DNA of 59,250 nt from Kiritimatiellia bacterium (GTDB lineage: Bacteria > Verrucomicrobiota > Kiritimatiellia > RFP12 > UBA1067). Where the stretch lies: positions 1 through 59,250 of the forward strand of contig JAZSLQ010000089.1 of the NCBI GenBank assembly GCA_045535455.1. The letters run 5' to 3'. Each line of letters begins with the position of its first letter. Position 1 is the stretch's first letter. The notes beneath the pieces were generated by a model. The model made no database searches. It worked only from the letters and a program-made list of their open reading frames with translations, and had not been told where the DNA came from. Shown piece by piece: positions 16,812 to 41,627 of this stretch. Made by a program: the position numbers and the translations under genes.

Positions 16812-16936
16812 TCTGCACAGGTTGTAGTGAACAAACAAGTAGCGAAAGTGTAAATTTGGGTAAATCTGGGGAGAGACCCTAAATTTGCTTGCAAAACAAT
16901 GCGATTTTTCGTGCGTAATTGAAACTTATCTAGAAA

Positions 16937-17007
16937 TGAGAATTCAATGCGGAATTCTTATCCTAGATGGGACTTTTCTTGCCAAGAATTTCCGCATAGA
17001 ATTCTCA
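16937..17007. repeat. Inverted pair of the ~28-bp TGAGAATTCWATGCGGAA motif
   Basis: tgagaattcaatgcggaattctt (16937-16959) and aagaatttccgcatagaattctca (16984-17007). Confidence 0.7.
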
Positions 17008-17015
17008 AAATAAAT

Positions 17016-17093
17016 TTGTAACAACTTCTCCATTGCATTGACGCAGAAAAGTTGTTACAATACTGTCGATATGGGCAGAAAAGTTGTTACAAT
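17016..17093. promoter_or_regulatory. Promoter and repeated operator-like sites of Fic gene 3
   Basis: TTGCAT (17033-17038), 17 nt, TACAAT (17056-17061). 19-bp direct repeat gcagaaaagttgttacaat at 17043 and 17075; inverted core ttgtaacaact at 17016-17026. Confidence 0.65.
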
Positions 17094-18054
17094 CGGTGGT
17101 AAGCCGTTTCATTCCAAGCTTGCGCCATACGAAAGCGAAGTGAAAGAGCTTAAGGCTTCCAGTGCAAGCGTTAGGGCGATTGCGGCTGAGATGTTTGCGC
17201 GGCATGGCATCCAAGTGTCGCACAATGCCGTCGCGTCGTTTTTGCGGACGCATGGTACCAAGCGTCGCAACTTTCTTGACGGAATCGGCGAGGCGAGGCG
17301 AACGGAACTGCTAAAGGCGATTAGGGCGCTTTGGACGCACGACTCTACGGCGATCGAGGGCAATACACTCTCGCTCGGCGATACGATGGCGGTGCTGGAG
17401 TATGGCTTGACGGTGAAGGGGAAGCCGCTCAAGGACCATCAGGATATTGTCGCCCACGCGAACGGCGTTGATTTTGTGCGTTCGCTTCTTGACAAGGGGC
17501 GTATTGCCGAAGCGGATGTCTTGGAGTTGCATCGCATCGTCGTGCCGAATGAAACGCGAGACATATACAAGCCCATTGGAGCGTGGAAGCGCGAGGACAA
17601 TGGCACTTATGGCGCCGAGGGTGGCAGAAGCGTCTACATGCCCTACGCCTCTGCCGATGAAACGCCGAAACTGATGCGCGGCTGGATAAAGGCGTTCAAC
17701 TTGTTGTTTGACGGCATCAAGGGCGCAGACGCTGCGCTTGAGGCGTATTTGTTCGCCCATGTCTCGTTTGTGCGAATCCATCCGTTCTTTGACGGCAACG
17801 GCAGGCTTGCGCGGCTTCTTGCAAATCTGCCGGTTCTCTACGCGGGCTTCCCGCCGATTGTAGTTCCGTCCGAGGCGCGGCTTGAGTACATCCGCGAACT
17901 TTGGGATTACCAGCGCGCGGTGGGCGTAATCAGTCTCGCAAGAAAAGAGCTGCTGCCCGAACCGACACGACTCGACAATCTGCGCCGCCTCATTCGCAAT
18001 TGGTGGCAGACAACTCTCGACCTCGTTGCCGAGGCAAAGGGGAGTTCAAAATGA
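17071..18054 (+). CDS. Fic family protein (canonical motif) with a putative N-terminal HTH
   Basis: 'HPFFDGNGRLAR' and 'STAIEGNTL' motifs; helix-turn-helix-like 'SVRAIAAEMFARHGIQVSHNAVASFLR'. ATG 17071 preferred over TTG 17038. Confidence 0.9.
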   Translation: MGRKVVTIGGKPFHSKLAPYESEVKELKASSASVRAIAAEMFARHGIQVSHNAVASFLRTHGTKRRNFLDGIGEARRTELLKAIRALWTHDSTAIEGNTLSLGDTMAVLEYGLTVKGKPLKDHQDIVAHANGVDFVRSLLDKGRIAEADVLELHRIVVPNETRDIYKPIGAWKREDNGTYGAEGGRSVYMPYASADETPKLMRGWIKAFNLLFDGIKGADAALEAYLFAHVSFVRIHPFFDGNGRLARLLANLPVLYAGFPPIVVPSEARLEYIRELWDYQRAVGVISLARKELLPEPTRLDNLRRLIRNWWQTTLDLVAEAKGSSK

Positions 18055-18215
18055 GTGACGTGATTTCATTCGTGACTTCATTGTTGTTTATTGCATGTCT
18101 GCTTTACGTGCCGATATGCGCGATCGCGGTGTTGGCGCGTAGTCTTGCCACGCCAGAAGACGGCAAAATGACGAGAGAGAATTCGACATTGACTTGGGTT
18201 TTGTGCGTATGGTAA
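18051..18215 (+). CDS. Small hydrophobic ORF (54 aa), possibly a fragment
   Basis: ATGA overlap with the Fic stop; one TM-like stretch; its 3' end overlaps the sod promoter. Confidence 0.3.
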   Translation: MSDVISFVTSLLFIACLLYVPICAIAVLARSLATPEDGKMTRENSTLTWVLCVW

Positions 18216-18218
18216 AAT
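18189..18218 (+). promoter_or_regulatory. sod promoter
   Basis: TTGACT (18189-18194), 18 nt, TAAAAT (18213-18218) with TG extension. Confidence 0.55.
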
Positions 18219-18247
18219 GCCTTTCGTCATAGAGGATATAACATATT

Positions 18248-18928
18248 GTGAATACAAGAAGACAGTTCGTTGCCGGGGCGGCATGTGCCGCGATGGCTTT
18301 GCACAGTCGAATTCTGAAAGGAGAATCCGCCATGAAAGAAATTACTCTTGCACCTCTTCCCTACGCCGACGACGCGCTTGCACCGACGGTTTCCGCAAAG
18401 ACGATCTCGTTCCACTACGGCAAGCACCACGCTGGCTACGTGAAGACGCTGAACGGCCTTATTGCAGGAACAAAATACGAGGGACTTTCCCTCGGGGAGA
18501 TCGTCGCCGCATCTCGCGACGCGGGCGATACGGCAATCTTCAACAACGCGGCGCAGATCTGGAACCACGACTTCTACTGGCGGCCGCTCGCACCAGCCGG
18601 CAAGGGCGGCGAGCCGTCTGCGGAACTTCTCGCGGCGATTAGCACGTCCTTCGGCTCGCTCGACGCTTGCAAGACGGAGCTTGCCGACGCGGCGGTTAAG
18701 CGCTTCGGAAGTGGCTGGGCGTGGCTTCTCGTAAAGGACGGCAAGCTCGTCATCGAGTCGACGTCCAACGCCGAAACGCCGTGTGGCAAGCCCGGCGTCA
18801 AGCCGCTCCTCGTGATCGACGTTTGGGAACATGCCTACTACCTTGACTGGCAGAACCAGCGCGCCGCATACGTCAAGGCGGTTGTCGATGGACACCTCAA
18901 CTGGTCGTTCGCGTCGACTGGTTTGTAA
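18248..18928 (+). CDS. sod: Fe/Mn superoxide dismutase with a putative Tat signal peptide
   Basis: 'FHYGKHHAGYV', 'NNAAQIWNHDFYW', 'RFGSGWAWL' and 'DVWEHAYY' motifs; N-terminal 'TRRQFV'. Alternative start at ATG 18332. Confidence 0.93.
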   Translation: MNTRRQFVAGAACAAMALHSRILKGESAMKEITLAPLPYADDALAPTVSAKTISFHYGKHHAGYVKTLNGLIAGTKYEGLSLGEIVAASRDAGDTAIFNNAAQIWNHDFYWRPLAPAGKGGEPSAELLAAISTSFGSLDACKTELADAAVKRFGSGWAWLLVKDGKLVIESTSNAETPCGKPGVKPLLVIDVWEHAYYLDWQNQRAAYVKAVVDGHLNWSFASTGL

Positions 18929-18942
18929 TACGTTTATCCCGT

Positions 18943-18991
18943 GGCGGGTTCATCTGTTCCAGCCGCGGCGCTTCCCGCCTGTGCGTTTTTT
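18943..18991 (+). terminator. Possible weak intrinsic terminator after sod
   Basis: ggcggg (18943-18948) / cccgcc (18974-18979) followed by a T-run at 18986-18991; the loop is long. Confidence 0.25.
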
Positions 18992-19061
18992 CCACATCTG
19001 AGGCGAAAAATATGATAAAATACCACCTAATTGTTTTTACTAATAGGAGATAGATCGTATA

Positions 19062-20246
19062 ATGAAGACGAGCACGAAGAACGAGTACAAGTGCCAAGTT
19101 GAGCTTAAGGTCGAGCTAAACGCCGAGGAAATGAAGGGAATCGTGAAGGACGTCGAAAAGGCGTTCGTCCGCGAAGCACGGATCCCAGGCTTCCGCCCCG
19201 GCAAGGTTCCGATTGAAATCATCCGCAGACAGTTTGCCGACGGCCTCAAGCAGGAGACCGAACACACGATGATCCGCAAGCACTACGCGGACGCGGTAAA
19301 GGCCGAGAAGCTCGACGAGATTACGCTTGCCGACGTGAAGGACATCTCGTTCTCTACCGACGGCGGCACGTTCACGGCCGTTGTCGAAATCAAGCCGAAG
19401 TTCAAGGTTCCGACCTACAAGGGTCTCAAAATCGCCGACAAGGACACTGCGGTTTCCGACGAGGCCGTCAAGGAGCAGCTCGAGCGCCTGCGCGCCGCGT
19501 ACGCGAAGTACGAGGACGCCAAGGAGGGAGATACCGTTGCCGATGGCGATTTCGTGCAGATCGACTACACCGGCACCGTTGACAAGAAGCCGATCCTCGA
19601 GATCGCGCCCGAGGCCAAGGTCGTCGCGTCCGGCACGGGCTTCTGGACTCAGGTCGAGGAAGGGCGCTTCCTCCCCGAGATCCTCGACGCCGTGAAGGGC
19701 ATGAAGGTCGGCGAGACGAAGGAAGACGTCAAGGCGAAGTTCGCGAAGGAAGGCGCCCCCGAAGGGCTCGGCGGCAAGAAGGCCGTCTACACGGTGACGC
19801 TCAAGGCGTTCCGCCGCCGCGTTCTCCCCAATGACGCCGAATTTGCCGAGAAGGCGAAGGCCGAGTCTGTCGAGAAGCTTTCCGCCACGATTCGCGAGTC
19901 GCTCGAGAAGCAGGCCGTCGAGGCCGAGGCGATGCGCCGCGAGAACGAGGCCGTCGAGTTGCTTCTCAAGAAGGCCGATTTCGACGTTCCGCAGAGCCAG
20001 GTCCGCCGCGCAATGGACGGCTACCTCCAGGAGCTCGCGCAGCGTGCGCAGTATTCCGGGCTCGACGCTTCCTACTTCGAAAAGAACCGCGACAAGATCC
20101 TCAAGGACGCCGAAGAGGCCGCCACGAAGCAGGTCCGGCTCTGGTACGTCCTCGAAGCGATCGCCAAGGCCGAGAACATCGAGGCCAAGGACGAGGAGCG
20201 TGGCAAGAAGGTCATCGACTTCGTCCTCGCGAACGTGAAGAAGTAG
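19062..20246 (+). CDS. tig: Trigger factor
   Basis: 'IPGFRPGKVP' ribosome-binding motif, FKBP-like middle domain, located upstream of clpPX. Promoter -10 TGATAAAAT at 19013-19021. Confidence 0.95.
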   Translation: MKTSTKNEYKCQVELKVELNAEEMKGIVKDVEKAFVREARIPGFRPGKVPIEIIRRQFADGLKQETEHTMIRKHYADAVKAEKLDEITLADVKDISFSTDGGTFTAVVEIKPKFKVPTYKGLKIADKDTAVSDEAVKEQLERLRAAYAKYEDAKEGDTVADGDFVQIDYTGTVDKKPILEIAPEAKVVASGTGFWTQVEEGRFLPEILDAVKGMKVGETKEDVKAKFAKEGAPEGLGGKKAVYTVTLKAFRRRVLPNDAEFAEKAKAESVEKLSATIRESLEKQAVEAEAMRRENEAVELLLKKADFDVPQSQVRRAMDGYLQELAQRAQYSGLDASYFEKNRDKILKDAEEAATKQVRLWYVLEAIAKAENIEAKDEERGKKVIDFVLANVKK

Positions 20247-20254
20247 CATTGGTG

Positions 20255-20310
20255 CAACCTTTCAACCTTTCAAATTTTCAACCTTTCAACTTTTCAACTT
20301 TTCAACTTTA
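20255..20310 (+). repeat. 8-mer tandem array (caacYttt x7) between tig and clpP
   Basis: Seven imperfect 8-mers ending 1 nt before the clpP ATG. Confidence 0.9.
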
Positions 20311-20311
20311 A

Positions 20312-20893
20312 ATGAAGTCATACATGATACCGTATGTCGTCGAGCAGACCGGCAAGGGCGAGCGTACGTACGACATCTACTCGCGCCTCCTCCTCGACAG
20401 GATCGTCTTCATCTCGGGCGAGGTGAACGACGAGATGGCGAACGCCGTCTGCGCCCAGCTTCTCTTCCTGCAGTCGCAGGACCCGAAGAAGGACATCAAC
20501 GTCTACATCAACTCGCCGGGCGGCAGCGTCACGGCGGGGCTCGCGATCTACGACACGATGCAGTTCGTCAAGTGCCCGGTCGCGACATACTGCATCGGCC
20601 AGGCCGCTTCCATGGGCGCGGTGTTGCTGACTGCGGGCGCGAAGGGCAAGCGCCATGCGCTCCCTAATTCGCGCATCATGATCCATCAGCCGTGGGGCGG
20701 CGCCGAGGGCAAGGCCTCCGACATCGAGATCACGGCGAAGGAAATCCTTCGGCTCAAGGAAATCTTGAACGGCATTCTCGCGAAGCACTCCGGCAAGAAG
20801 TTGGCTGACGTCGTTAAGGACACGGATCGCGACCACTTCATGTCGGCCGCCGAGGCCGTTGAATGGGGTCTTGTCGACAAGGTCGTGGAATGA
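20312..20893 (+). CDS. clpP: ATP-dependent Clp protease proteolytic subunit
   Basis: '[11 protein letters not shown]', 'YINSPGG', 'GQAASMG' and 'IMIHQP' motifs. Confidence 0.98.
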
Positions 20894-22131
20894 AAGAACT
20901 GACCTGTTCGTTTTGCGGAAGAAGCTCGAAAGAGGTCGGGATGATCCCTGGCCCCGACGCGAACATCTGCGTCGACTGCGTTCGCCACGCCAACGAGATG
21001 GTGACGCGCCACGAGAAGAAGGCAAAGGACGTTCCGCCTCTTCCGCCTACGCCGACCCCGAAAGAAATAAAGGCGTTTCTCGACCAGTATGTCATCGGGC
21101 ACGACGAAGTGAAGAAGGTGCTCGCCGTTGCCGTTCACAATCACTATCGCCGCCTTGAGGCCGCGGAGAAGGGTAATGGAATGGACGGGGGTTCGGGCAC
21201 CCCCGCACCCCAGCCCGCGGAAAAGTTTACTGATGTTGAAATCGAGAAGTCCAACATCCTCCTTATCGGGCCGACTGGAACAGGCAAGACACTTCTTGCG
21301 CGGACGCTCGCGAAGATGCTTGGTGTTCCGTTCGCCATCGGTGACGCGACGGTGCTCACGCAGGCGGGCTATGTTGGTGAAGATGTCGAGAACCTCGTCC
21401 GCTACCTTCTCCAGAATGCCGACGGCAATGTCGAGCTCGCAAAGCGCGGCATAATCTACGTTGACGAAATAGACAAGATTGCGTCAAAGACAGACAACGT
21501 GTCAATCACGCGCGACGTCTCTGGCGAAGGCGTTCAGCAGGCGCTTCTCAAGATCCTCGAGGGCACGATTTGCCGCATTCCGCCGAAGGGCGGCCGCAAG
21601 CACCCCGACCAGGAGTATATCGAGGTCGACACTTCTAACATCCTCTTCATCTGCGGCGGAGCTTTCGTCGGTCTCGACAAGATAGTCGGCGAGCGCACCG
21701 GCAAGCGCGCCATTGGTTTTGGCGCGGCGGAGCAGAAGACGGGGAACGGGGAACGAGGAACGGGGAACGGCGATGTCCGTCCCGAGGATCTCGTAAAGTT
21801 CGGGTTAATCCCCGAGTTCACGGGCCGTCTCCCCGTCATCACCACAATGAAGGAGCTTTCCGAGGACGATCTCGTTCGCGTCTTGACTGAGCCAAAGAAC
21901 TCGCTCGTCAAGCAGTACCAAAAACTCCTCTCAATGGATGGCGTCTCGCTCTCGTTCGAGCCCGACGCCCTCAAGTCGCTCGCGAAGACTGCGCTTGAGC
22001 GCAAGACAGGTGCGCGCGGTCTCCGCGCCGAGATGGAGCGACTCATGACCGACGTAATGTATGAGGCGCCGGGCAACGCAAAGATGAAGAAGGTCGTAGT
22101 GACGAAGAAAATGGTCGAGGAGAGGAGCTAG
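20890..22131 (+). CDS. clpX: ATP-dependent Clp protease ATP-binding subunit
   Basis: Zinc finger 'CSFCG...ICVDC', Walker A 'GPTGTGKT', '[14 protein letters not shown]' and 'GARGLR'. ATG overlaps the clpP stop. Confidence 0.98.
21740..21769 (+). repeat. 7-mer array (cggggaa x4) inside clpX
   Basis: cggggaa cggggaa cgaggaa cggggaa cg, translated as [11 protein letters not shown]. Confidence 0.85.
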
Positions 22132-22158
22132 CCGCGAAGGCACCAAGCACCAGGCACC

Positions 22159-22491
22159 ATGTTACTTGAGATACTAAAAGCAAAATTGCACAGGATACGC
22201 GTAACCGAGGCGTGCCTCGATTACGAGGGCTCGCTTACGCTTGATCCCGACGACATGGAAGCGGTCGGGCTCGTCCCCTACGAGAAGATTCTTGTCGCCG
22301 ACGTCGAGAACGGAAACCGCTTCGAGACCTACGCCATAGCCGGAAAGCGCGGCAGCCACGTCTGCTGTCTCAACGGCGCGGCGGCGCACAAGGGCAAGAT
22401 AGGCGACCGGCTCATCGTAATGTGCTTCGCCCAGATGACGCCAGAGGAGGCTAAGGGTTGGTCGCCTCTCGTAAAGCATTTCAGGAGTTAG
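22159..22491 (+). CDS. panD: Aspartate 1-decarboxylase
   Basis: 'KAKLHR..VT...DYEGS' self-cleavage site, 'NGNRFETYAI' and 'LNGAAA'. Confidence 0.95.
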   Translation: MLLEILKAKLHRIRVTEACLDYEGSLTLDPDDMEAVGLVPYEKILVADVENGNRFETYAIAGKRGSHVCCLNGAAAHKGKIGDRLIVMCFAQMTPEEAKGWSPLVKHFRS

Positions 22492-22531
22492 TGGCTCGTG
22501 CCATGGAAATACTGAACCTTCGGACACAGAT

Positions 22532-24865
22532 ATGAAACACGGAAAGACACTCTTTTTGCTGGCATTCATCTTTGCGACTGCGGCCGCGTTCGCGGGTGAG
22601 GCGCTTCCCTCGTCCGCTGCCGACTGGCCGGCAAAGCTCGGTATGACGCCGAAGATGCTCTTCCTCGTTCTGCAGATCGGCATAATCATCTTCGCCGCGA
22701 AGATCGGCGGGTCGATCGCGACTGTGCTTAAACTCCCGAGCGTCCTTGGCGAACTTGGCGCCGGCATACTGATTGGCCCGTGGGCGCTCGGCGGCTTCCC
22801 GATCCCCGGCTTCGACGGCATGTTCCAGTACGGCATCTTCTATGGCAAGGCCCTGCGCGTCCAGGCCGCCGCAGGCGGGAATCCCTTCGCCGCGACGCCC
22901 GAACTCTACGGTATCTGCACCATCGCGTCTGTCGTCTTGCTCTTTCTCTCAGGGCTTGAGACGAACCTCAAGATGTTCCTCAAGTACGCTTTCGCCGGCT
23001 CTCTCGTTGGCGTCGGCGGCGTGGTGCTCTCGTTCCTCCTCGGCGACCTCTGCGCCGTCTACGCGACGACGTATCTCCCCGACCTCCTCGGCGGCATCGA
23101 GTGCCTCGCGGAGCTCGGCGAGCTCGTGAAGGAGGGCAAGGTTGTTCAGGCGGCGCTCTCGCCGGCGGCGATGTTCATGGGCATCATGTCCACCGCGACT
23201 TCGGTCGGTATCACCGCGCGCATACTCTCCGAAAAGAAGAAGATGGACTCCGAGGAGGGCGTAACGATCATGGCGGGCGCTGTGATCGATGATGTCCTCG
23301 GCATTATCGTCCTCGCGATCGGCATGGGCATCATCGGTTCCCAGCGCGCGGCGGCGGCGGCCGGCGAGGCGGCGCAGGGCATCGACTGGGGTGCCATCGG
23401 CGCGACGGCATTGAAGGCGTTTGGCGTATGGCTCGTCGGCACAATCGTCGGCGTGGTGTTCGCGAAGAAGATTTCCTGGCTCCTAAAACTTTTCAAGGCG
23501 CACGCCGCGATAGCGACGCTTGCGTTCGGCCTTGCGCTCGTCATCGCGGGCATGTTCGAGGCGCTGGGGCTCACCCTCATCATCGGCGCATACGTGATGG
23601 GTCTCGCGCTATCGCGTACCGACATCAAGCACCTCGTCCAGGATAACCTCGCGAACCTCTACACGTTCCTCGTGCCGATCTTCTTCTGCGTGATGGGCAT
23701 GATGGTCGACGTTACGGCGCTTTGGTCGAAGCCCGTCCTCATCTTCGGCGGCATCTACACCGCGCTCGCCGTCCTCGCGAAGATCGTTGGCTGCGCGATT
23801 CCGTCGCTTTTCTGCGGCTTTAACGTCCTCGGCTCCTTGCGCGTCGGCGCGGGCATGATCCCGCGTGGCGAAGTCGCGCTCATCATTGCTGGTATCGGCC
23901 TTTCGAACGGCTATCTCACCCAGGAGGTGTTTGGCATTGGCATTCTGATGACCCTCGTCACGACGGTCGTTGCGCCGCCTGCGCTCGTCGGGCTCTTCCA
24001 CCCGAAGGCGAAGGGCGTGCGCCATCCGAAGCCAGACGCCGACGGCGGGCGCGAAGTAGTCTTCGAGCTCGAGACGCGCGAAGTCGCCGAACTCGTCGTC
24101 AATCGTCTCGTCGAGGAGTTCCGCAAGGAGGGCTTCTTCGTCACGCTCCTCTCGCAGACCGACCACATCTGGGAGATCGCGATGGACGACATCGACATGT
24201 CTGTTCGCCGCATCGGCAAGAAGATTCGCTTCACCTGCACGAAGGCCGAGGAGACGATGGTAATGACGGCGTGGATGGAGGTCGCTTCTCAGATGAACGA
24301 CCTCGCCCGCGCGATCGCGAAGCCCATCCGCAAGGAAGACCTTGGCAAGATGATCGCTAAAAGCGAGCCAGCGAAGCGCGGCCACGAGGGCGTCGGGCGC
24401 TATTTGCAGGGCTTCGTCATGCTGCCGAAGTTCCGTGCGTCGTCCAAGAAGGAGGCGATCGAGAAGATGGTCGCCGAAATCGCGGCGGCTTGCCCGAACC
24501 ATGTCAAGAACGCAGCCGAGGCGGTCAATGCCGTGCTTAAGCGCGAGGAGTCGATGCCGACGGGTCTTGACCACGGCATCGCGGTTCCCCATGGCCGCTG
24601 CCCGAGCGTCCACGGCATCGCGGGCGCCGTCGCTATCGTCGACAACGAAGGAACCGCGAATGGCTGCATACCCGATTACGAGACGATTGACAACTCGCCG
24701 TTGAGGATTATCGTTCTTACGGTTGCGAACGACGAGGCGCAGACGCCGTATCTCAAGCTTATGAGCTTCATCTCCCGTGCGCTTCGTGCCGACAATGGCT
24801 ATGAGCGGCTCGCCGCGTGCAAGACGCCTGACGAGATGCGTCGCTTCTTTAGAAACGCAAAGTGA
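22532..24865 (+). CDS. Cation:proton antiporter (CPA2 family) with a C-terminal PTS EIIA domain
   Basis: Many TM helices; '[11 protein letters not shown]', 'AVIDDVLG' and 'GMIPRGEV'; EIIA motif '[13 protein letters not shown]'. Confidence 0.9.
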
Positions 24866-26334: not shown

Positions 26335-26343
26335 TTTTGCCAT

Positions 26344-26372
26344 TTGCCATAAGACGCGATAGATGGTATAAT
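26344..26372 (+). promoter_or_regulatory. Promoter of the pilC-pilin operon
   Basis: TTGCCA (26344-26349), 17 nt, TATAAT (26367-26372) with TG extension. Confidence 0.7.
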
Positions 26373-26404
26373 CTACCCAAACTTGAGGAAGGTCTATTCC
26401 GAAC

Positions 26405-28887: not shown

Positions 28888-28889
28888 CA

Positions 28890-32023: not shown

Positions 32024-32468
32024 GAGAGGTTTTACGCTTGTCGAGTTGATTGTCGTGATCGCAATGATTGCGATATTCATGGCTTCCGTCGGCACGGCGG
32101 TCGGCAAGACGGCGGAGCGTGCCCGCATCGAGAAGGCGAGAAGCGACGTAAAGGTCATTTCCCAGGCGATTCTCGCGTGGGAGAACTACTCGCGCAACGG
32201 GAAGCACGAACTGAGGGAGATGAACGACGAGGAGGCCGATTCTTCCTCCCTCGCGTTTCTGCTCGGGCAGGGCGAGAGCGCCACGTCCGGCAAGATACCG
32301 GAACTCCTGGCGGCCCAGCTTGCCGGCGGGAAGATGCGCGACCCGTGGAGCAGACCATACGTCGTGCGCATCAAGGAGGGCAAGATTAACCGCCCAGAGA
32401 ACCTCGACCTCGGGACCTGCTACTATCTGCCGAACTTCTATCGACTTTCAGGGGAGGAACGCAGATGA
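32010..32468 (+). CDS. Prepilin-like protein, GspG-like
   Basis: 'NERG|FTLVELI'; 'RDPWSRPY' motif. Confidence 0.85.
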   Translation: MTLNERGFTLVELIVVIAMIAIFMASVGTAVGKTAERARIEKARSDVKVISQAILAWENYSRNGKHELREMNDEEADSSSLAFLLGQGESATSGKIPELLAAQLAGGKMRDPWSRPYVVRIKEGKINRPENLDLGTCYYLPNFYRLSGEERR

Positions 32469-35400
32469 ACAGAAGGGGATCAGCGCTTCTTATCGTGCTC
32501 GGCGTTCTTTCGTTCCTCGTCGTTTCGGCGGTCGCCTTCTCCGCGTTCATGCGCCGCGCGCGCCTGCCGTCGAGCTATCTGAGGCGCTCCGTAGCTGCGA
32601 GAGAGCTTGCGAAGGGCGCTCTTGCCCGCGCTATCGACGAGATAGACAGGGCCATCGCCGACGATGTCCATCCCGGCATAGGAAGCAGGCCGTCGAACAG
32701 GTGGCGCAACCGCGTGTTCTTCAAGGACGGCAGTGAACAGGACGTCTCCCAGACCGCTCCGACCTTGACGTTCGAAGGGCTCGCCTACATTCCGCCGCCG
32801 CTTGTCAACGAGGCGCGCTACTGGTCGCGCAAGACCCCTACCGCCGTGTGGAGCGCGTTCGGATACGACACGGGGCGCTATGCATATTGCGCTCTCGACG
32901 TCTCCGACTACTTCGACGTGAACCGCCTAGTTGCCGACTATCCGCGTTCCTCGTCCGCGAATCGCCGCATTACGGCCGCACACCTCTTCGAGGACGTCAA
33001 CCACAGGAGTGCGCCGTCCGGCGCCGATGCATGGGATACGTTCATGGAGCAGTTCCGCGATATCGACGAAGACTCGCTTGAGATAACCTTTGACTCCAAC
33101 TCGAAGATGCCGCTTGTGTCAGTTGCCGATTTCAACCTCGCCCTTGGCGACAAGAGTTCGATCGGCAAGATGAAGAGCCCCTTCGTTGAGTATCTGAAGA
33201 AGGAGGGCACCTTCTATGATGGAGACCCTGCTCAGCTTGAGGCCTATGCCGCGATGACGTTCGTGACCGACGGATGGTTCCCGAGGGGCAAGAAGACGGT
33301 CGCCAGCGGCTCGTCTGGCGCCACCGCCGCCATTGAGACGTATGACCTCTCCGACAGCCGCTACCAGCCGTATCAGATGAACATGCTTGCCAAGGACAGG
33401 CTCAAGTTGTCGCAGGCCATCCTCGGCACGGGCCTTAATACGCAGGGCGGCAAGAGCGACCTATGGCTCGAGCGACTGGCGGGACTCGGCTGTGCGGCGC
33501 TTGCCGACTACCTTGATGCCGACCGCACGCCGATTTCGCTTGCTGTCCCGACGACCGAACGCGTGCCTATGATCTGCGGCATAAGCCCCCAACTCGGCGA
33601 CTCGAAGTTCCGGCTGCGAGTACAGGGCATCGATGGCGAGCCGACCGAGACGGTCAGGGAAAGCGGAACCAGCCGAACGGTAACGCAGACCGTCACTTGG
33701 AAGATCGATGCCGCCGAGATTGCCCGGGCGTTCATGCAGGGGCATGTCCAGGCACTTGTGGTCTATCCGTTCTTGCACAAGGAGGAGAACGAGCCGCAGT
33801 TCGAGGTCGATGGGCAGTTCTCCCTCTTTTTCAGCTCGACCGACATCAAGCTTCGCACGAGCGCACGCGACGTTTTGCACCTTGCCCAGCGACAGATTGC
33901 GGACTCGGCCATCGATTCGGCTAACGGTGTCATCCGCGTGAAGCTTCCGCAGGGCAATCCTGCCATGAAGACGCTCTCGTCCGGCATAGCGGAGACGCAG
34001 GAGGACGCCGTCTGGGACAGTGCGGTTTCATTGTCGCTTGACGGCGGCTCTGGGCTTGCGAACGAGTTGAACAATGCTGGGCGCGAATTTCTGAAGATAA
34101 CATATACCTGGAAGCAGACTCGTGAGGATGAGGATCAACCCTGGACGCCTTCGCTCCAGACGCTGATGCAGACGGATGTGTCGGGAAATCCCGAAGTCAC
34201 CGTCGAGGCATCCTGCGGACTTCCCGCGCTGAAGGCCGACGGCACGGTTGACCCGGAGTTTACCACTGGTCTTTCCCAGTGGATTAAAAAACCAAACTTG
34301 TCGAAGGCAATCAAGCTTAATGCCGCTGTGTGGCTTCGCGTCGTCAACAAGACCGACAACAAGGTCGTCGACCTCGTTCCGGCCTGCATCTCTGACGACC
34401 GTACCCAGAACAGCATTAACGACCCAGATACGCGCGTGGAGATTATCGGCGCCGATGAGTTTGCCGGAAAGCCATTCCCTGTAATGCGCTTTGACATGGG
34501 CGTTGAGCTTGATTTTGGCGTGCAGAAACTTCTGTCGTTTGCGGGCGACGGCGGGGAGCCGCCTGACCTGCAGGCATCTCCGAAGTCCGTCATGGTAGCA
34601 GACCCGCGCTTCAACTACGCTCCGGAGCATTGGTTCAAGTCCGAATCAGAGAACCTGACAGCACAGGATTGGACGAGCGCTCTCAAGGATGGCGGTTATC
34701 TGGACGGCGATCACGACGGTGACATGTTCCTCGCAACGAGCGACGCCGGATACCTTCAGTCGATCTACGAGCTTGCGTTCCTGCCGCGCCTTACGAATCT
34801 CAGGACCACTGGCAGTTCGTCCACCTCTGGAAATCTGCGGCCGCCGGGGGCTGGAAATCCGACGACTTTCGCGGCAAGAGGGTCTGAGCCGAATCGCGAG
34901 TTCATGTGGACCAGTTACGACCCGATCGATATCGACGAGGCCGCTTTCAACGATCTGCCGTTCACGAGCGAGGGGACGGGGATGAAGGTGAACCCCTATT
35001 CCGACTCGACGAATGTCCTCATGGCGGCGTTTGCCAACACGCCGATCGACTGGCGCCGCGCCTCAACGAACGTTATGGAAGGCGCGACCGACTATGCGTC
35101 GATGTCCGTCGCGGACTTCAACAAGAAGTACGCCTGGAACGAATATTCCGAAGGTGGCAAGTTCGCGTGGGAAGATCTTCAGAAGGTGGCAGGGCACTTC
35201 ATGTGGCGCATGCGAAATTCGGGGAACCAGAGCTGGCAGACTGTATGGAACGACATCGACTGGTATGGGCTTTGCAGCGACGGCAAGGTGTTCGCCTCCG
35301 GCGGCGGGCAGGACATGCAGATCACCGGCAACACCGATGAGCTCTGGGACGTTGACCGCAAGTTCCTCTATGGCTACTGGCGCGACTGCTTCGCGGCGAA

Positions 35401-35590
35401 GCAGCAGCTGTTCCTTATATTTGTCCGCGCGGAGCCGCTGATGCTCGGCGGAGGCACGGCGGACCAGTTGCCGCCGCAGCTTGGCGCACGCGCCGTTGCG
35501 CTCGTCTGGCGCGATCCCACGACGTCCAGCGGGACGACCGGCGGATATCCGCACCGCACGCGACTTCTCTTCTACCGTCCACTCGACTGA
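32465..35590 (+). CDS. Large PilX/GspK-like pilin-associated protein (1041 aa)
   Basis: 'MNRRG|SALLIVLGVL' prepilin-like N-terminus lacking Glu5, at the distal end of the minor-pilin set. Confidence 0.8.
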   Translation: MNRRGSALLIVLGVLSFLVVSAVAFSAFMRRARLPSSYLRRSVAARELAKGALARAIDEIDRAIADDVHPGIGSRPSNRWRNRVFFKDGSEQDVSQTAPTLTFEGLAYIPPPLVNEARYWSRKTPTAVWSAFGYDTGRYAYCALDVSDYFDVNRLVADYPRSSSANRRITAAHLFEDVNHRSAPSGADAWDTFMEQFRDIDEDSLEITFDSNSKMPLVSVADFNLALGDKSSIGKMKSPFVEYLKKEGTFYDGDPAQLEAYAAMTFVTDGWFPRGKKTVASGSSGATAAIETYDLSDSRYQPYQMNMLAKDRLKLSQAILGTGLNTQGGKSDLWLERLAGLGCAALADYLDADRTPISLAVPTTERVPMICGISPQLGDSKFRLRVQGIDGEPTETVRESGTSRTVTQTVTWKIDAAEIARAFMQGHVQALVVYPFLHKEENEPQFEVDGQFSLFFSSTDIKLRTSARDVLHLAQRQIADSAIDSANGVIRVKLPQGNPAMKTLSSGIAETQEDAVWDSAVSLSLDGGSGLANELNNAGREFLKITYTWKQTREDEDQPWTPSLQTLMQTDVSGNPEVTVEASCGLPALKADGTVDPEFTTGLSQWIKKPNLSKAIKLNAAVWLRVVNKTDNKVVDLVPACISDDRTQNSINDPDTRVEIIGADEFAGKPFPVMRFDMGVELDFGVQKLLSFAGDGGEPPDLQASPKSVMVADPRFNYAPEHWFKSESENLTAQDWTSALKDGGYLDGDHDGDMFLATSDAGYLQSIYELAFLPRLTNLRTTGSSSTSGNLRPPGAGNPTTFAARGSEPNREFMWTSYDPIDIDEAAFNDLPFTSEGTGMKVNPYSDSTNVLMAAFANTPIDWRRASTNVMEGATDYASMSVADFNKKYAWNEYSEGGKFAWEDLQKVAGHFMWRMRNSGNQSWQTVWNDIDWYGLCSDGKVFASGGGQDMQITGNTDELWDVDRKFLYGYWRDCFAAKQQLFLIFVRAEPLMLGGGTADQLPPQLGARAVALVWRDPTTSSGTTGGYPHRTRLLFYRPLD

Positions 35591-35597
35591 CAGCGAT

Positions 35598-36518
35598 ATG
35601 AAAAAGGCATTCACTCTAATAGAACTCCTCGTAGTCATTGGCATCCTCGCCATCCTCATAGCCATCCTCGTCTCGACTATATCGAATGGCACGGAGGCCG
35701 CTCGCGCGGCGCGTTGTCTTACAAACCTTAAGAACCTGGCGAACGCCTGCAACTCGTATGCGATGGCGCATCAGTACTATCCGCTTGCCGGCTCGGTCGA
35801 GACGCGCTCTCTCGACAGGAGCAGCGGTACCTCCGGGGAAATCAGGCAGAAATACGCTGAAGTGCCTGGCTGGCTCAGTTGGAATTCACGCGGCGCCTAC
35901 GAGGGCAAGACGACCTCGCACGTCGCGAGCGGCGGCTGGTTCACTTCTTCGTACAACCAGGATTACGACACTCGCCAGTACGCCCTCACTAACGGCGCAT
36001 TGTGGAGGTACGTCTCCGAGAACGCGGATGTGTTTGTGTGTCCCGCGCATCTCAAGGCGATGCGTCTCCAGAGGCCGCTGTGGAGCTATGTGATGAACGA
36101 GCGCTTTGGCTACGACAATTCGCAAGGTTCGCAGGCAAAGCTCTACAGCCCCCACGTTGGCTACGGTCACCTTTCCCGCCCCGACCGTGTTCTCATGTTC
36201 GCGGAGATGCAGTTCCTTGCGAACGACAAAGTAGATGTGAACGCCGACGCCGGCTCCGGCATAAGGAACGACTGCACGCTCCAGTACAACCACAACGAGG
36301 TGATCGGCTTCAACCATCCTAACGGAAAGCGCGGGCTTTCCGCCAACATCGTGTTCGCGGACGGGCACATAGAGAAACTTGTCATTCCGGCCTCGCCTAC
36401 AAGTGACAAGTGGGCTGTCGCAATCAGCAGAGGCGAGCTTGAGGACTTGACGGAATGGCTTTGCAAGGGCGAGGACGTGTTCTTCAACGGCGCAAAATAC
36501 GAAAAGCGCACGGACTGA
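35598..36518 (+). CDS. Prepilin-type protein with an H-X9-DG-like C-terminal motif
   Basis: 'MKKA|FTLIELLVVIGILAILIAIL', 'CLTNLKNL', 'FVCPAH' and 'NHPNGKRGLSANIVFADGH'. Confidence 0.88.
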   Translation: MKKAFTLIELLVVIGILAILIAILVSTISNGTEAARAARCLTNLKNLANACNSYAMAHQYYPLAGSVETRSLDRSSGTSGEIRQKYAEVPGWLSWNSRGAYEGKTTSHVASGGWFTSSYNQDYDTRQYALTNGALWRYVSENADVFVCPAHLKAMRLQRPLWSYVMNERFGYDNSQGSQAKLYSPHVGYGHLSRPDRVLMFAEMQFLANDKVDVNADAGSGIRNDCTLQYNHNEVIGFNHPNGKRGLSANIVFADGHIEKLVIPASPTSDKWAVAISRGELEDLTEWLCKGEDVFFNGAKYEKRTD

Positions 36519-36522
36519 CGCA

Positions 36523-37122
36523 ATGATCTCCATAATGATAGTCGATGACCATCCGATGGTCAGAGAGGGCTTGGCCGCCATGCTCGAGAGCGAGCAGGAT
36601 TTTCAAGTGGGCGCTCTTGCGGCGACGGGCGAGGAGGCGGTCGCGATAGCGGGCACGGCGAAGCCCGACGTGGTCTTAAGTGACATCAGGATGCCGGGCA
36701 TCGACGGTTTTGGCGTGCTCGCGAAACTGAAGGAATCCTATCCCGACATCCGCGTCCTTTTGATGGCGGGAATGCCCCTCAAGGAAGAGGAGGCGCGGGC
36801 GCGGGAGGAAGGCGCGAAAGGGTATCTGCCGAAGAACGTCGACCAGGATCGCCTCGTCGCGGCCATTAGGACAATAGCGGCTGGCGAATCCGGGTTCGTT
36901 TGCGAAGAGTTCCAGGTCGCGCCCTCGACGCTTACCGCGCGCGAGCTCGACGTGCTCAAAGAGGTTGCGAGCGGCAAGCAGCGCGACGCAATTGCCGCGT
37001 CGCTCGGCATTGGCGCGGAATCGGTGAAGACACACCTGAAGGGCATCATGACGAAGCTCAGTTGCCCGAACGCGACGAGCGCCGTTTCCCGTGCGTACGA
37101 GCTCGGCATTCTTCGGGCGTGA
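36523..37122 (+). CDS. Response regulator, NarL/FixJ family (REC + LuxR HTH)
   Basis: 'IVDDHPMVREGL', phospho-Asp in 'LSDIRMP', 'GYLPK' and 'LTARELDVL' HTH. Confidence 0.92.
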   Translation: MISIMIVDDHPMVREGLAAMLESEQDFQVGALAATGEEAVAIAGTAKPDVVLSDIRMPGIDGFGVLAKLKESYPDIRVLLMAGMPLKEEEARAREEGAKGYLPKNVDQDRLVAAIRTIAAGESGFVCEEFQVAPSTLTARELDVLKEVASGKQRDAIAASLGIGAESVKTHLKGIMTKLSCPNATSAVSRAYELGILRA

Positions 37123-37123
37123 A

Positions 37124-37858
37124 ATGACTGACGCCCACTGCCATGTCTCTTGCGGTGACTCGTCTGTGCGCGAGTTTCTGATTGGCCGCGACTTCTTCGG
37201 TGTTCATCCCTGGGAGACTCTTGATGGGACAAGCAAGACTGGCGGGACATCCGAGACTAACGCGCTTCTTGTCCCGGATGTCCCAGTTGTCCCATTTCTC
37301 ACTGCGCTCCTTGCCTCGCTTCGCCCTAAGCTCCATGCGAATCCCAACGCTGGCGTTGGTGAGATCGGCCTCGACCGCCTCAAGGTGCGTGACATCCCGC
37401 CTCTTATGCGCACGGTCTTTGAGTTCCAGCTATCTCTTGCGATTGAGCTCCACCGCCCCGTCGTTCTTCACGGCGCGAAGTGCTGGGGTCAGGTGGTGGC
37501 GACGGTAAAGAGGATGATGGGGGGAGGACTTGCGACGCGCGATACGCGACAGGCGTTTTTGTTTCATGGCTTTTCCCGCTCTGATGGGCTTATTCCAGAG
37601 ATCATCAAACTCAATGGCTTTATTTCCGTTGGCCCGGCTGTCCTGAACGACCATGCAGTGAATTACCGTGAGCTCGTCAAGAAAATCCCCTTAGACCGTC
37701 TCCTCGTCGAAACCGACGCCGTGGCAGAGGCGCGTGTCCCTACGCGCCCGCACATCCGCGACGTCCTTGCCAAGACTGCAGACATCCTCAACCTCTCCGC
37801 CTCGGAACTCGAGCGGATTACCGACGAAAACGCCGACCGCTTCCTTGGCGTTGTGTGA
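37124..37858 (+). CDS. TatD-family hydrolase, with an in-frame repeat insertion
   Basis: 'DAHCH', 'GVHPW', 'VGEIGLD', 'RPVVLH' and 'LLVETD' motifs. Confidence 0.88.
   Translation: MTDAHCHVSCGDSSVREFLIGRDFFGVHPWETLDGTSKTGGTSETNALLVPDVPVVPFLTALLASLRPKLHANPNAGVGEIGLDRLKVRDIPPLMRTVFEFQLSLAIELHRPVVLHGAKCWGQVVATVKRMMGGGLATRDTRQAFLFHGFSRSDGLIPEIIKLNGFISVGPAVLNDHAVNYRELVKKIPLDRLLVETDAVAEARVPTRPHIRDVLAKTADILNLSASELERITDENADRFLGVV
37224..37295. repeat. Palindromic 9-mer-arm element inside tatD
   Basis: (g/a)(g/a)gac at 37226, 37235, 37244 and 37253; gtccc at 37271, 37280 and 37289. Confidence 0.8.
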
Positions 37859-37871
37859 TATAATACACGCC

Positions 37872-38693
37872 ATGAACGGTGCAATACTTCCTTGCTGCCT
37901 TACCATTGCCGGAAGTGATTCCGGTGGCAACGCCGGCGTCCAGGCCGATCTTCGCGCTTTCCACGCCTACAATCTTCACGGCTGCACAGTCTTTGCCGCA
38001 CTTACGGCACAGAACCCGCATGGCGTCTCTGCAATTCACGCTGTTCCTGCCGACTTTGTCGCTGCGCAGCTCGATGCAGTTCTGGGTGTCTATGATATTC
38101 GCGCGCTCAAGACGGGTATGCTTGCTTACCCTGCGGCCATTGAAGTCGTCGCCGATCGGCTTGCCGCGCATCCTGAGATTGCAAAGGTGATAGACCCTGT
38201 GATGATTGCGACGAGCGGGGCGCAGCTCGTGTCCGACGATGCAGTTACGGTTCTCACGAAGAGACTTCTTCTGCTTGCCACGCTTGTCACGCCGAACTTG
38301 CCCGAGGCCGAGGCGCTTTGCGGCGTTGCAGTAGATCCGACTGAAAGTCGCGCGGTAGATTCGGCCCATGCGAGGGAGCTTGCAGCCCGGCTTCACGAAA
38401 AGTTTGGTTGTGCCGTGCTTGTGAAGGGCGGTCATGGTTCTGGAGCGACGGCGGTTGACGTTCTTTTTGACGGAAAGTCGTTTGAGGAGTTTTCGATGCC
38501 GTGGGTTGCAAATCCCGTTTCCACTCATGGCACTGGTTGTTCGCTTGCGGCTGCGCTCGCTGCGGAGCTCGCGCTTGGTCGCAATCTTTCCGCCGCTGTG
38601 CGTGGCGCGAAGGCGTATGTGCATGACTCGATAGCGCGGTCGCATCTCGTCGGCGAGAACTGCGGCGTCCTCGGCTTCGCACCACGCACATAG
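37872..38693 (+). CDS. thiD: Hydroxymethylpyrimidine/phosphomethylpyrimidine kinase
   Basis: 'LTIAGSDSGGNAGVQAD', 'KTGML', 'DPVMIATSG', 'VTPNLPEA' and 'THGTGCS' motifs. Extended -10 TGATATAAT at 37856-37864. Confidence 0.95.
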   Translation: MNGAILPCCLTIAGSDSGGNAGVQADLRAFHAYNLHGCTVFAALTAQNPHGVSAIHAVPADFVAAQLDAVLGVYDIRALKTGMLAYPAAIEVVADRLAAHPEIAKVIDPVMIATSGAQLVSDDAVTVLTKRLLLLATLVTPNLPEAEALCGVAVDPTESRAVDSAHARELAARLHEKFGCAVLVKGGHGSGATAVDVLFDGKSFEEFSMPWVANPVSTHGTGCSLAAALAAELALGRNLSAAVRGAKAYVHDSIARSHLVGENCGVLGFAPRT

Positions 38694-38838
38694 ACTTCAC
38701 ACTGCGCGTATAGACTTCGTCAGGTCTGCACAGATTTTGTCTTGCACATATAGACTCGCCTAGCCTGCACAGACTTCGGCTCGCACATATAGACTTCGCG
38801 ACAAGTGTGCATAGACCTTGTCCTGTGTGTGTATAGAT
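38691..38838. repeat. Degenerate ~20-bp tandem array (YAGAY core x8)
   Basis: Cores at 38691, 38711, 38731, 38751, 38770, 38790, 38812 and 38834. Confidence 0.75.
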
Positions 38839-38912
38839 TGTGCGCAAACCGTTGGCACTAACTGCCATATAGGCTATGTTCACCCCAGCAGCTCCAACTA
38901 TTGCATTTTCCA

Positions 38913-38940
38913 TGAGAATTCAATGCGTAAAAATCTCAAG
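38913..38940 (+). repeat. Copy of the ~28-bp motif
   Basis: tgagaattcaatgcgtaaaaatctcaag. Confidence 0.7.
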
Positions 38941-39192
38941 CCGCAGTCATTCTCTCGCTTCTGAATGATGTGCGTCAGACATGTCGCCGAAAACTAGATG
39001 GTAGAAGGGGGTTTATGATGAAACGAGAGTTGTTTAGGCGACAAGAAATTCTCGGTCGCGCTATAACCGATATCGTGGCTATTTGAAACCCAATCGTCTC
39101 TCTTCAACTGTCTTGATTTGTGGCAATGGCCTATATCCGGCAGACTATTATGATGGCGGATCTTTTTGACGGCATTTTGGCTTTGGGCGACT

Positions 39193-40164
39193 CTACTTTT
39201 TCAAACGTCGCCGTCGCTTAGTCATCTTTTCCCGCTTTCTGCCGTCTCTTAGATGTCTTGCGACTCCTTCTGCCTCTCCCTTTTTGAGAACCCTATGCGG
39301 AAAATTCTTAAGCCGCCTCGGCTCGTCGAGCAGCACTGTCTCCGGTGAGAGCATGTGCTCGAGCTTCTTGAACACGCGGTCGAAGACTGGCCCTTCGCCT
39401 GAAAGTATCTCCTCCACGACCGCGTGCCGCGGCGTCCCGTCGAGAAGGGCGGCGGTGGGAGTAGGGTCCTTCGTGCCAGTCGCCTGCCGGAGGCGTATCG
39501 CCATCGCCTTGTAGCGCATGAGCGTCTTGTACTTGGGCGAGAGCTCCGGCAGGTTCTCCTTGAGCCATCCGCGGATCCCGCCGTTGCGCCCGACGACGTC
39601 GCCTGACTCGTCGAACCTCAGGCAGTTGTCGACATAGCATTCGAGATCGTGCAGCATCCCGCCGAGGCGTACCATCGCCTCGCGCGAGTCCTTTCGCCCG
39701 TTCCACGCGGCGAGAAGGGCGGCAGGGGTGGGCATCGGCGCGGTCGTGGTGCGGCGCGAGAGCTTGCGCCTGGCGGCTGCGAGCTCGCGGCGGCGGGCCT
39801 TCTCGCGGGCGTAGTAGAAGGGCCTGCGGACTATCCGCAGGTCGCGCATGAGCTCGCGTTTCATGCGGTCGCGTTCCCTCGGGCTTGCGAGCTTCTTAAC
39901 CTCGTCGCGCATGAGGACCCCGATGTCCATCGCGATGCAGACGCCGAGGAGAAGGGGGTTGAAGGTCGAGTCGAAGTACGTGCTGGCGTTCCGCCGCTCG
40001 AACCAGGCGTCGCCGTAAGACTCTCCCTCGGCGACCTCCCTCGTGCGCGGGCGGTAGGTGTGGATGTCGAGGTATTTGCCGGTGTAGGTCTTCGCCTCGC
40101 TGTATGTCCAGCCGTAGTGGTAGGCGTACCAGTACGCCGAATGCTCGTATGTCTTGCGGGTCAT
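39193..40164 (-). CDS. Hypothetical protein (323 aa), the only minus-strand gene
   Basis: Long GC-rich ORF with its own extended -10 (attatacca at 40204-40212, i.e. TGGTATAAT on the minus strand); no recognised catalytic motif. Confidence 0.7.
   Translation of the reverse strand: MTRKTYEHSAYWYAYHYGWTYSEAKTYTGKYLDIHTYRPRTREVAEGESYGDAWFERRNASTYFDSTFNPLLLGVCIAMDIGVLMRDEVKKLASPRERDRMKRELMRDLRIVRRPFYYAREKARRRELAAARRKLSRRTTTAPMPTPAALLAAWNGRKDSREAMVRLGGMLHDLECYVDNCLRFDESGDVVGRNGGIRGWLKENLPELSPKYKTLMRYKAMAIRLRQATGTKDPTPTAALLDGTPRHAVVEEILSGEGPVFDRVFKKLEHMLSPETVLLDEPRRLKNFPHRVLKKGEAEGVARHLRDGRKREKMTKRRRRLKK
39285..39312 (+). repeat. Copy of the ~28-bp motif inside the 3' end of the minus-strand gene
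   Basis: tgagaaccctatgcggaaaattcttaag. Confidence 0.65.
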
Positions 40165-40217
40165 AATATAGTGCTTTTGCCTCTTTTCCAGTCGGCAGGA
40201 AGTATTATACCATAAAA

Positions 40218-40245
40218 TGAGAATTCTATGCGGAAAAATCTTGAG
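40218..40245 (+). repeat. Copy of the ~28-bp motif
   Basis: tgagaattctatgcggaaaaatcttgag. Confidence 0.7.
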
Positions 40246-40387
40246 GGTGTGTATTCTTACTTGTGCTACAGTCTGCTGATGCGGTGGTCTGCATTTTTAG
40301 GCGGTTTGCGGGTGGGGAGATTTGGTATAATATCTCGCATAAAATTTAGTTGGGGTGTAAAAACATTGAAATGTGAGAGCGAGAATA

Positions 40388-41617: not shown

Positions 41618-41627
41618 GGTTTAATCA

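Follow-up and report, generated by a model that had tools for sequence, protein, structure and literature searches.

A 25-bp motif and its partner gene family in gut and rumen Kiritimatiellae: a candidate operator and end marker of one-gene cassettes

Between positions 16,937 and 40,245 of a contig from a Kiritimatiellia bacterium (JAZSLQ010000089.1, assembly GCA_045535455.1), a short, partly palindromic motif occurs in five dispersed copies, some of which lie beside an orphan open reading frame (ORF), ORF323. The whole contig, 59,250 nt in length, is referred to as the window; it is contig C14 of a 3.43-Mb assembly of 277 contigs (genome G000), and other contigs of this genome, other genomes and individual loci are given by C, G and L numbers, respectively. 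What role does such a motif play? The original prediction regarded it as either a recombination site or the site of an unknown regulon. The analysis firmly establishes that the motif is associated with a single protein family, that of ORF323, as its cis-partner. The explanation favored here, with middling confidence, is a new family of small, selfish, one-gene cassettes, confined to gut and rumen Kiritimatiellae, for which the motif would be the cognate cis-site and would serve both as an operator and as an end marker.

The motif and the ORF323 promoter

A search of the window with the originally proposed consensus, at 3 or fewer mismatches, finds four copies of the motif, and none is expected by chance (100 shuffles of the sequence). 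The fifth copy, at 16937, has an A-run that is one or two bases shorter (GAGAATTCAATGCGGAATTCTTAT) and is seen by direct reading; thus, all five of the copies first reported are real. The motif is 25 bp long, reads AAGAWTTTTCCGCATWRAATTCTCATTT on the opposite strand, and in its consensus form is a 9-6-9 imperfect palindrome, GAGAATTTT-ATGCGG-AAAATTCTT. The layout described earlier for the 16937 copy, two arms around 6 bp (AATGCG), agrees with the sequence. A frequency matrix of this "A-type" motif, made from 76 distinct copies (ccctcAAGAaTTTTCCGCATagAATTCTCATttt), has information peaks at TTTTCCGCAT and AATTCTCAT, and conservation is highest in the 6-bp center. The copies in the window, together with the features of ORF323, are as follows.

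40218 to 40242, plus strand: upstream motif copy, exact consensus; its minus-strand reading is AAGATTTTTCCGCATAGAATTCTCA, 5 bp ahead of TGGTATAAT, at about -45 to -21
39285 to 39309, plus strand: downstream motif copy, oriented as the upstream one (direct), just past the conserved core of the protein; translated as KNFPHRVLK
38913 to 38937, plus strand: degenerate solo copy with 2 mismatches, in the 512-bp stretch 38694-39205
16937 to 16961, plus strand: motif copy, left half of an inverted doublet in tail-to-tail arrangement
16983 to 17007, minus strand: motif copy, right half of the doublet; its TCTCA end faces a helix-turn-helix (HTH)-Fic gene, and an insertion/deletion (indel) junction lies at 7 bp
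39196 to 40164, minus strand: ORF323, an orphan gene of 323 aa, multi-copy and patchy in occurrence, with a basic product; putative motif-binding protein
40204 to 40212, minus strand: extended -10 element TGGTATAAT of ORF323, read in the sequence, with no recognizable -35
39206 to 40247, minus strand: unit of ~1.04 kb made up of motif, promoter, ORF, inner motif and stop, with counterparts at other loci and in other genomes

ORF323 is the sole minus-strand gene of its region, with thiD on one side and a Mur-ligase gene on the other. Read along the minus strand, the 40218 motif is followed by 5 bp, the element TGGTATAAT (40212-40204), 40 bp and the ATG of ORF323, and the motif overlaps the predicted promoter of the gene, from about -45 to -21. 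Because it has no -35 element, this promoter is not listed by a simple -35/-10 scan. The same order (motif, then ATTTTATGGTATAAT, then an ORF) is found in the window and in relatives. A TGnTAyAnT box is present within 22 bp after the motif in 37 of the 76 distinct copies, and all homologues in relatives that have enough flanking sequence carry the motif directly ahead of a TGnTATAMT box, mostly with a second copy past the gene.

Several other identities for the motif itself were rejected. It does not represent the -35/-10 elements of a σ70, extracytoplasmic function (ECF) or σ54 promoter, since by inspection the hexamer at -35 is CGCATA, and the "B" variant described below does not represent promoter hexamers, since, again by inspection, it is followed by a TTGATT-N18-TATAAT promoter of its own. 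A short peptide (MRILCGKIL...) starting from an ATG within the copies was dismissed because several copies lack an ATG and the downstream sequence is not conserved. Rfam returned no known RNA family in the window or in related contigs, and a search for defense systems with PADLOC returned nothing.

The ORF323 family and the distribution of the motif

When the genome and its relatives are scanned for the motif, a check that had been proposed with the original prediction, it is seen to track one protein family. The motif is present, in 2-9 copies each, in all 7 of the genus genomes that have a close ORF323 homologue and in none of the 11 that lack one (0/11), even when 2 mismatches are allowed; the reversed pattern, used as a control across the genus genomes, gives zero everywhere. 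A scan of 185,579 genomes, one per prokaryote species, with the exact pattern detects 48 loci, nearly all of them in gut or rumen metagenome-assembled genomes (MAGs). Records titled Kiritimatiellae/Kiritimatiellia, uncultured bacterium, Verrucomicrobia or Lentisphaerae account for 47 of these loci, and the remaining one is in a MAG labeled Eubacteriales. Within the genome of the window, further clear copies are present at C39:4345, C100:2075, C100:3408, C207:7505 and C210:34498, and weaker copies on C147, C148, C156 and C246; since the genomes are MAGs, assembly breaks and possible chimerism blur copy counts of this kind. Near matches on C273 (two) and C28 (one) are signal-peptide coding sequence and were excluded as family members.

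ORF323 is modeled as a mostly α-helical protein with one β-hairpin at residues 182-193 (AlphaFold, mean predicted local distance difference test score [pLDDT] 75.8); by eye, the hairpin is followed in this model by two helices, the whole spanning residues 182-229. The protein has no match in Pfam, PHROGs, NCBIfam or PADLOC, its model has no significant Foldseek match in PDB or BFVD, and its profile finds nothing among PDB sequences. A transposase catalytic domain is likewise absent from searches of Pfam, PHROGs, NCBIfam, PDB and Foldseek with ORF323, its distant paralogues and 10 long family members, and the latter have no Pfam domain either. More than 1000 homologues are present in a metagenome protein collection, none of them named or with a domain and many on contigs of 1-3 kb. 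A profile search yields 568 clusters at 50% identity; their common core corresponds to ORF323 residues ~100-250, and the N-termini are variable. The C-terminal part of ORF323, which holds the 39285 motif, is a variable basic tail.

The genome contains three full copies of the gene, on C14, C210 (74% identical) and C100 (67%). Distant paralogues, 45-55% identical over the core, lie on C129 and C226, and C207 carries a 3' remnant. Among the genome and 30 relatives the family is patchy, being detected in 10 of the 31 with up to 14 matches each, and the diverged copies number 3-14 per genome. Several matches sit at contig ends, and many contigs stop inside the gene.

Variants of the motif accompany the more distant members. 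The B variant, GATTTCGTCCGCACC(A/G)TAATCTCATTT, lies ahead of the distant paralogues on C129, C226 and C115/C116 and can be aligned with the A-type as AAGATTT..TCCGCA....AWTCTCATTT. It occurs in the form GATTTCGTCCGCACCRTAATCTCATTT upstream of and inside the C129 and C226 paralogues, and inverted B copies are found inside the coding region of all of these distant paralogues. There are ~30 B copies in the genome, none of them in the window, and the variant is abundant only where several such paralogues exist (G000, G018 and G026). In G021, a genome of another family, two among the examined paralogues (L124 and L125) carry a "C" variant, ACTTTCCGAACCGTAATATCATTT, with copies ~66 bp apart upstream of the gene and a further one or two past it. 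Neither the B nor the C variant retains the palindromic arms. Eight dispersed copies are identical at 27/27 bp.

Some further observations concern these variants. The upstream C copies are each followed by a TTGACG-N17-TATGAT promoter, giving an iteron-like layout. B copies in the genome are spread over contigs C7, C10, C72, C100, C104, C115, C116, C129, C147, C156, C161, C174, C185, C194, C214, C226, C246, C271 and C273; most precede promoters and point the same way as the next gene, and several of them end a multi-copy repeat of ~300 bp (GCATTGCGCCGAAACACCCC...). A multi-copy structured RNA or leader of ~230-450 nt lies behind a TTGATT-N18-TATAAT promoter at L091 (G000:C156, ~285-583), L092 (G000:C246, 1-303), C7, C161, C208, C214, L077, L090 and L143. 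This RNA is found upstream of DNA methylase or restriction-modification cassettes and of other genes. In most copies a B motif precedes the promoter, and an A or B motif often lies past the 3' end. Folding 8 copies together gives a consensus of 77 pairs, of which 20 show compensatory changes, and there is no Rfam match at E<=0.1. The RNA is present in 14 of 18 genus genomes, including some without ORF323 or the motif.

Limits of the unit and junctions between strains

ORF323 and its two motif copies belong to a unit that occurs at different loci and in multiple copies. Homology between copies at different loci stops 0-7 bp outside the upstream motif; when the window copy is compared with its paralogues, the limits are 40244-40249, at the outer edge of the motif, and about 39324-39344 on the other side. 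At other loci, the homologous stretch begins at 39206 (C207 and L040) or runs over 39232-40247 (L070). The inner motif at 39285 is conserved in the orthologous copies L040, L054, L061, L070 and L089 and in the C207 remnant. Besides the copies on C14, C210 and C100, the MAG RUG10640 (G095) has one copy beside the Mur ligase gene (L054) and another at a different locus (L070), which is 91% identical over 39232-40247 only; the flanks of L070 are present on two G103 contigs, with breaks ~210-240 bp from the unit. RUG12612 has a copy near thiD (L058) and a copy beside the Mur ligase gene (L061). A contig from another metagenome (L040, 87% identical) is collinear over 39206-45481 and unrelated past the ORF stop. 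At L072 and L087 there are remnants, in which the motif and promoter are kept and the ORF is gone.

The orientation of the two flanking copies differs among units. They are direct in the clade of the window (C14, L040, L054, L061, L070 and L089), and also in L044, L059 and L076, and inverted in L064, L047, L086, L062, L005 and L068. In the first four of the inverted set, perfect 28-33-bp inverted repeats (AAGAATTTTCCGCATAAAATTCTCATTTTAT) surround a single-ORF unit of 1.36-1.43 kb; in L005 and L068 the inverted repeats are imperfect and span 1.28 and 0.97 kb, respectively.

The copies without a gene were also compared with their counterparts in close relatives, G095 and G103, which are 96-97% identical to the window around 16-18 kb. 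One further feature is needed here.

16813 to 17014, no strand: strain-variable 202-bp segment holding the doublet; replaced by GAGAG in G095 and present in G103

The placement of the motif "in or next to accessory DNA," as originally proposed, is borne out by these comparisons. The 16937/17007 pair has the stop codon of an MGMT-domain gene on one side and the HTH-Fic operator region on the other. It is within the 202-bp segment that is missing from one relative, whose flanks are 96% identical, and the other three copies flank the multi-copy orphan gene at a place where gene order breaks. On its right side the 202-bp indel ends 7 bp from the 17007 copy, at a junction that is also the left limit of the HTH-Fic cassette; in G103 the doublet is retained, and an extra 3.2-kb gene is inserted at 16846/16853. 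Elsewhere in the genome, a solo B copy on C174 corresponds in G103 to a site where a 3.2-kb cassette starts exactly after TCTCA; this cassette contains a promoter, a structured leader RNA, and genes for a 357-aa protein, a C5-methylase and a membrane protein. At C226:23162, G095 has an insert of 840 bp with a gene for a 229-aa secreted protein, 9 bp from the tail of the copy. Upstream of proS on C129, homology to G095 and G103 begins 13-14 bp past the copy, and both relatives have an intact 70-bp intergenic region without the motif, an empty site. On C194, a break lies 4 bp from the motif copy. In at least five independent comparisons, junctions are located 0-19 bp from copies. Thus, copies do coincide with indel junctions in relatives, and the refuting condition named with the original prediction, that they never do so, is not borne out. 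Neither a clean conversion of two sites to one between copies nor a reciprocal product of excision or inversion is seen in the comparative data.

Several observations were made alongside these. The 512 bp between thiD and ORF323 (38694-39205) have no counterpart in the relatives examined. Arrays of a ~17-nt repeat are present at window positions 38700-38860, in G000:C207 at 7250-7400 and in L070 at 3330-3530 (GCACATATAGACTTCG..., GGCGTCAGGCTCTTGTG..., AGGCAnnTAAGCGAC...), and these arrays adjoin or constitute the 3' tails of ORF323 copies. The end of C207 and the start of C156 (L093 and L091) overlap by ~66 bp, and the joined sequence has the ORF323 remnant (residues 262-320) beside an M16 peptidase gene, truncated by an island that contains B motifs, the structured RNA and a gene with weak similarity to the MmeI methylase domain. 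A tRNA-type attachment site at this junction was considered and rejected, since no tRNA is present.

The insert in G103 (L117, 4636-7825) encodes a 999-aa protein whose N-terminus by eye looks like an ECF sigma factor; the rest consists of a membrane segment and then a large extracellular part. In G095 the body of the HTH-Fic gene (17093-18036) is absent and only its operator, promoter and first 7 codons remain; the break coincides with the end of the second copy of a direct repeat, CAGAAAAGTTGTTACAA. G095 and G103 are only 85-91% identical to the window at 37-42 kb (86-91% at 39-41 kb), compared with 96-97% at 16-18 kb, a difference that suggests either recombination between lineages or a chimeric MAG contig whose parts were joined at the repeated ORF.

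Cassette, operator or recombination site

Each unit regarded here as a probable selfish cassette is 1.0-1.4 kb in length and consists of a motif, an extended -10 element directly behind it, one gene, and a second motif at or after the end of the conserved core. The gene product, a basic, helical protein with ~280 conserved residues (ORF323 in the window), would bind the motif and, when bound at -45 to -21, would control its own promoter. The two motif copies would mark the ends of a unit that is duplicated or moved between loci. The anatomy of the unit, the co-occurrence and co-variation of motif and gene, and the indel junctions are observed, whereas binding, autoregulation and a part in movement are inferred. 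Copies without a gene, such as those at 38913 and 16937/17007, may be cassette footprints or satellites in DNA that is gained or lost between strains. Rare states of the A-type motif that recur at both ends of one element are consistent with such a pairing: an A at position 8 in L004, CATTGCGGAATA in L005, CnCTGCGG in L068, and GAGATTTC in C100, L044, L059 and L076.

Insertion sequences provide a close model for an end that also regulates. In IS1, IS30 and IS911, the left inverted repeat contains the transposase promoter, and the transposase, by binding, regulates its own expression. The ORF323 units resemble insertion sequences in having one ORF of ~300 aa in 1.0-1.4 kb, perfect 28-33-bp inverted repeats in several clades, and an upstream repeat that overlaps the promoter; like them, they are multi-copy, patchy and found at various loci, with remnants and assembly breaks. 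However, ORF323 has no DDE, HUH, serine or tyrosine signature or known fold, target-site duplications are lacking, the clade of the window has direct repeats, the copies are old and diverged, and one limit of the ORF323 unit is a stop codon rather than a repeat. Another likeness is to the HTH-Fic cassette of the same genome, also a stand-alone, one-gene unit that is present or absent between close strains. ORF323, in contrast, belongs to another family without a recognizable DNA-binding domain, and its site is single, long and asymmetric, with many solo copies.

A number of findings weigh against the idea of a motif-bounded, mobile cassette. The left limit of the unit, CGCCGTCGCTTAG, lies at the last ORF323 codons (39206-39232), 53-79 bp past the inner motif. 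The clade-dependent orientation of the flanking copies does not fit a simple transposon with terminal inverted repeats, and the flanks of the six inverted-repeat elements contain no target-site duplication. No clean empty site for the ORF-bearing unit was found in the relatives examined; in this search the neighbors of the Mur ligase gene differed in every species at 77-86% identity, and exact-protein look-ups of thiD and the Mur ligase returned no record. The copies within a genome are 45-75% identical, as expected of old paralogues rather than fresh transpositions. Domain and fold searches reveal no known DNA-binding or catalytic domain in ORF323. In a few genomes without a detected paralogue, 1-2 B copies occur beside the structured RNA. 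The co-variation of the two ends was judged by inspection alone. Finally, the co-orientation of B copies with genes and their steady spacing from the -10 box suit a transcription-factor site as well.

This last point leads to a possible but doubtful alternative, that the motif is purely an operator. The ORF323 family would then be lineage-specific transcription factors acting on their own and other promoters, with no role in DNA movement, and the indels would merely reflect variable intergenic DNA. The overlap of the motif with the promoter of ORF323, the change of motif variant with protein clade, and the age of the paralogues (45-75% identity) are all in keeping with this. So is the orientation of the copies: about 25 of the 31 non-internal A and B copies in the genome face a co-oriented gene start less than 500 bp away (own count), and by inspection B copies lie 31-38 bp ahead of a -10 box despite differing spacers. 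Co-orientation with genes fits a regulatory site, but an element with a fixed manner of insertion ahead of promoters would account for it equally well, and much else is not expected of an operator. Eight dispersed copies are identical, whereas operators are degenerate; inverted downstream copies have no promoter behind them; and a single site is common to several paralogues within a genome. Contigs end inside the gene, remnants are present (C207, L072 and L087), a 91%-identical unit occupies a second locus, and the junctions near copies recur in comparison after comparison. The site upstream of the housekeeping gene proS is present only in this genome. Nor do domain and fold searches of ORF323 yield the recognizable DNA-binding domain by which an autoregulated factor would be known. 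At the other extreme, and unlikely, the ORF323 family could be a new class of site-specific recombinase or transposase, without a known catalytic fold, that acts on an asymmetric site of 25-30 bp. If so, promoter-bearing cassettes would be inserted, excised and shuffled immediately upstream of host promoters in Kiritimatiellae, with the gene itself, restriction-modification modules and genes for small secreted proteins as cargo.

Two further explanations assign the motif to enzymes other than ORF323. The motif could be the core site of a tyrosine (Xer, integron or lambda-type) or serine recombinase encoded elsewhere, which would excise or invert the DNA between copies; this appears very unlikely. 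It is suggested by the 9-6-9 arm-spacer-arm form of the A-type with its best conserved center, by the indel junctions at copies, and by the bracketing of a gene by direct or inverted copies, as in the pdif modules of Acinetobacter plasmids. Like pdif modules and integron attC sites, the motif has arms and a 6-bp center within ~28 bp and accompanies single-gene modules in either orientation, and module content varies between close strains with junctions at the sites. Unlike pdif and attC, there is no linked recombinase of the XerC/D or IntI type, each ORF323 cassette has a promoter of its own, the B and C relatives of the motif are non-palindromic, and the elements are chromosomal and dispersed rather than arrayed. 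In addition, Pfam detects no integrase or recombinase domain in ORF323 or 20 neighboring proteins, the presence of the motif follows ORF323 and not a general host function, no orthologous locus is seen in both orientations, and occupied sites such as G103:C97 have no second copy at the far end of the insert. The original choice between "recombination site" and "regulon site" survives in part: the motif tracks one family, sits on its promoter, and has copies at presence/absence junctions, but the analogy to the arm-core-arm sites of tyrosine recombinases is unsupported, given the lack of a recombinase domain, the loss of the arms in B and C, and the varying orientation. The second explanation, which is extremely improbable, is a repetitive extragenic palindromic (REP) or REPIN-like element moved by a REP-associated tyrosine transposase (RAYT, a Y1 HUH enzyme), with ORF323 as no more than a frequent neighbor. 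The motif is, as REP and REPIN sequences are, a short, imperfectly palindromic, dispersed intergenic repeat, which also forms inverted doublets (16937/17007, L080 and L083). As with those sequences, its presence in a genome is tied to a single dedicated protein family, the gene of which the repeats flank, and the solo copy on C39 lies 170 bp upstream of a gene whose product combines a Y1_Tnp domain (PF01797) with a Fic-like C-terminal domain (PF21247). However, C39-like proteins are present in 20 of 31 relatives irrespective of the motif; G012 and G016 have 67-69% identical orthologues and no motif, and G014 has the motif and no such gene. The C39 gene has a different hairpin of its own, AGAAGGGTCTGACCCTTCT. 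ORF323 is not a Y1 HUH enzyme, the motif lies ahead of promoters, co-oriented with genes, instead of at 3' ends, and it occurs in 10-30 copies rather than the hundreds typical of REP/REPIN. As the C39-type or RAYT-like genes and the motif do not co-occur, a RAYT link was rejected.

To return to the one-gene cassette with an ORF323-type protein acting at its own motif, the practical meaning of the result is that a protein family with no domain, fold or name is now linked to a defined DNA site, which makes its function directly testable. If ORF323 binds the motif, it would represent either a new DNA-binding fold with an asymmetric 25-bp target or the enzyme of a new, small, mobile cassette. Copies of the motif also flag places of gene gain and loss in rumen Kiritimatiellae, including those occupied by methylase and restriction-modification cassettes, and a map of the motif aids the reading of strain variation and assembly breaks in these uncultured bacteria. 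A literature search on Kiritimatiellota, repeat and promoter produced nothing relevant.

The C39 gene next to a solo copy has features of its own. At L094 (G000:C39, 4540-5661) it encodes a 374-aa protein with an IS200-like Y1 domain (HUH motif NHIHVL) and a Fic-like C-terminal HTH. The hairpin ahead of the gene, AGAAGGGTCTGACCCTTCT, is perfect and is conserved in G012. L094-like proteins are multi-copy in relatives, with 39 matches in G026.

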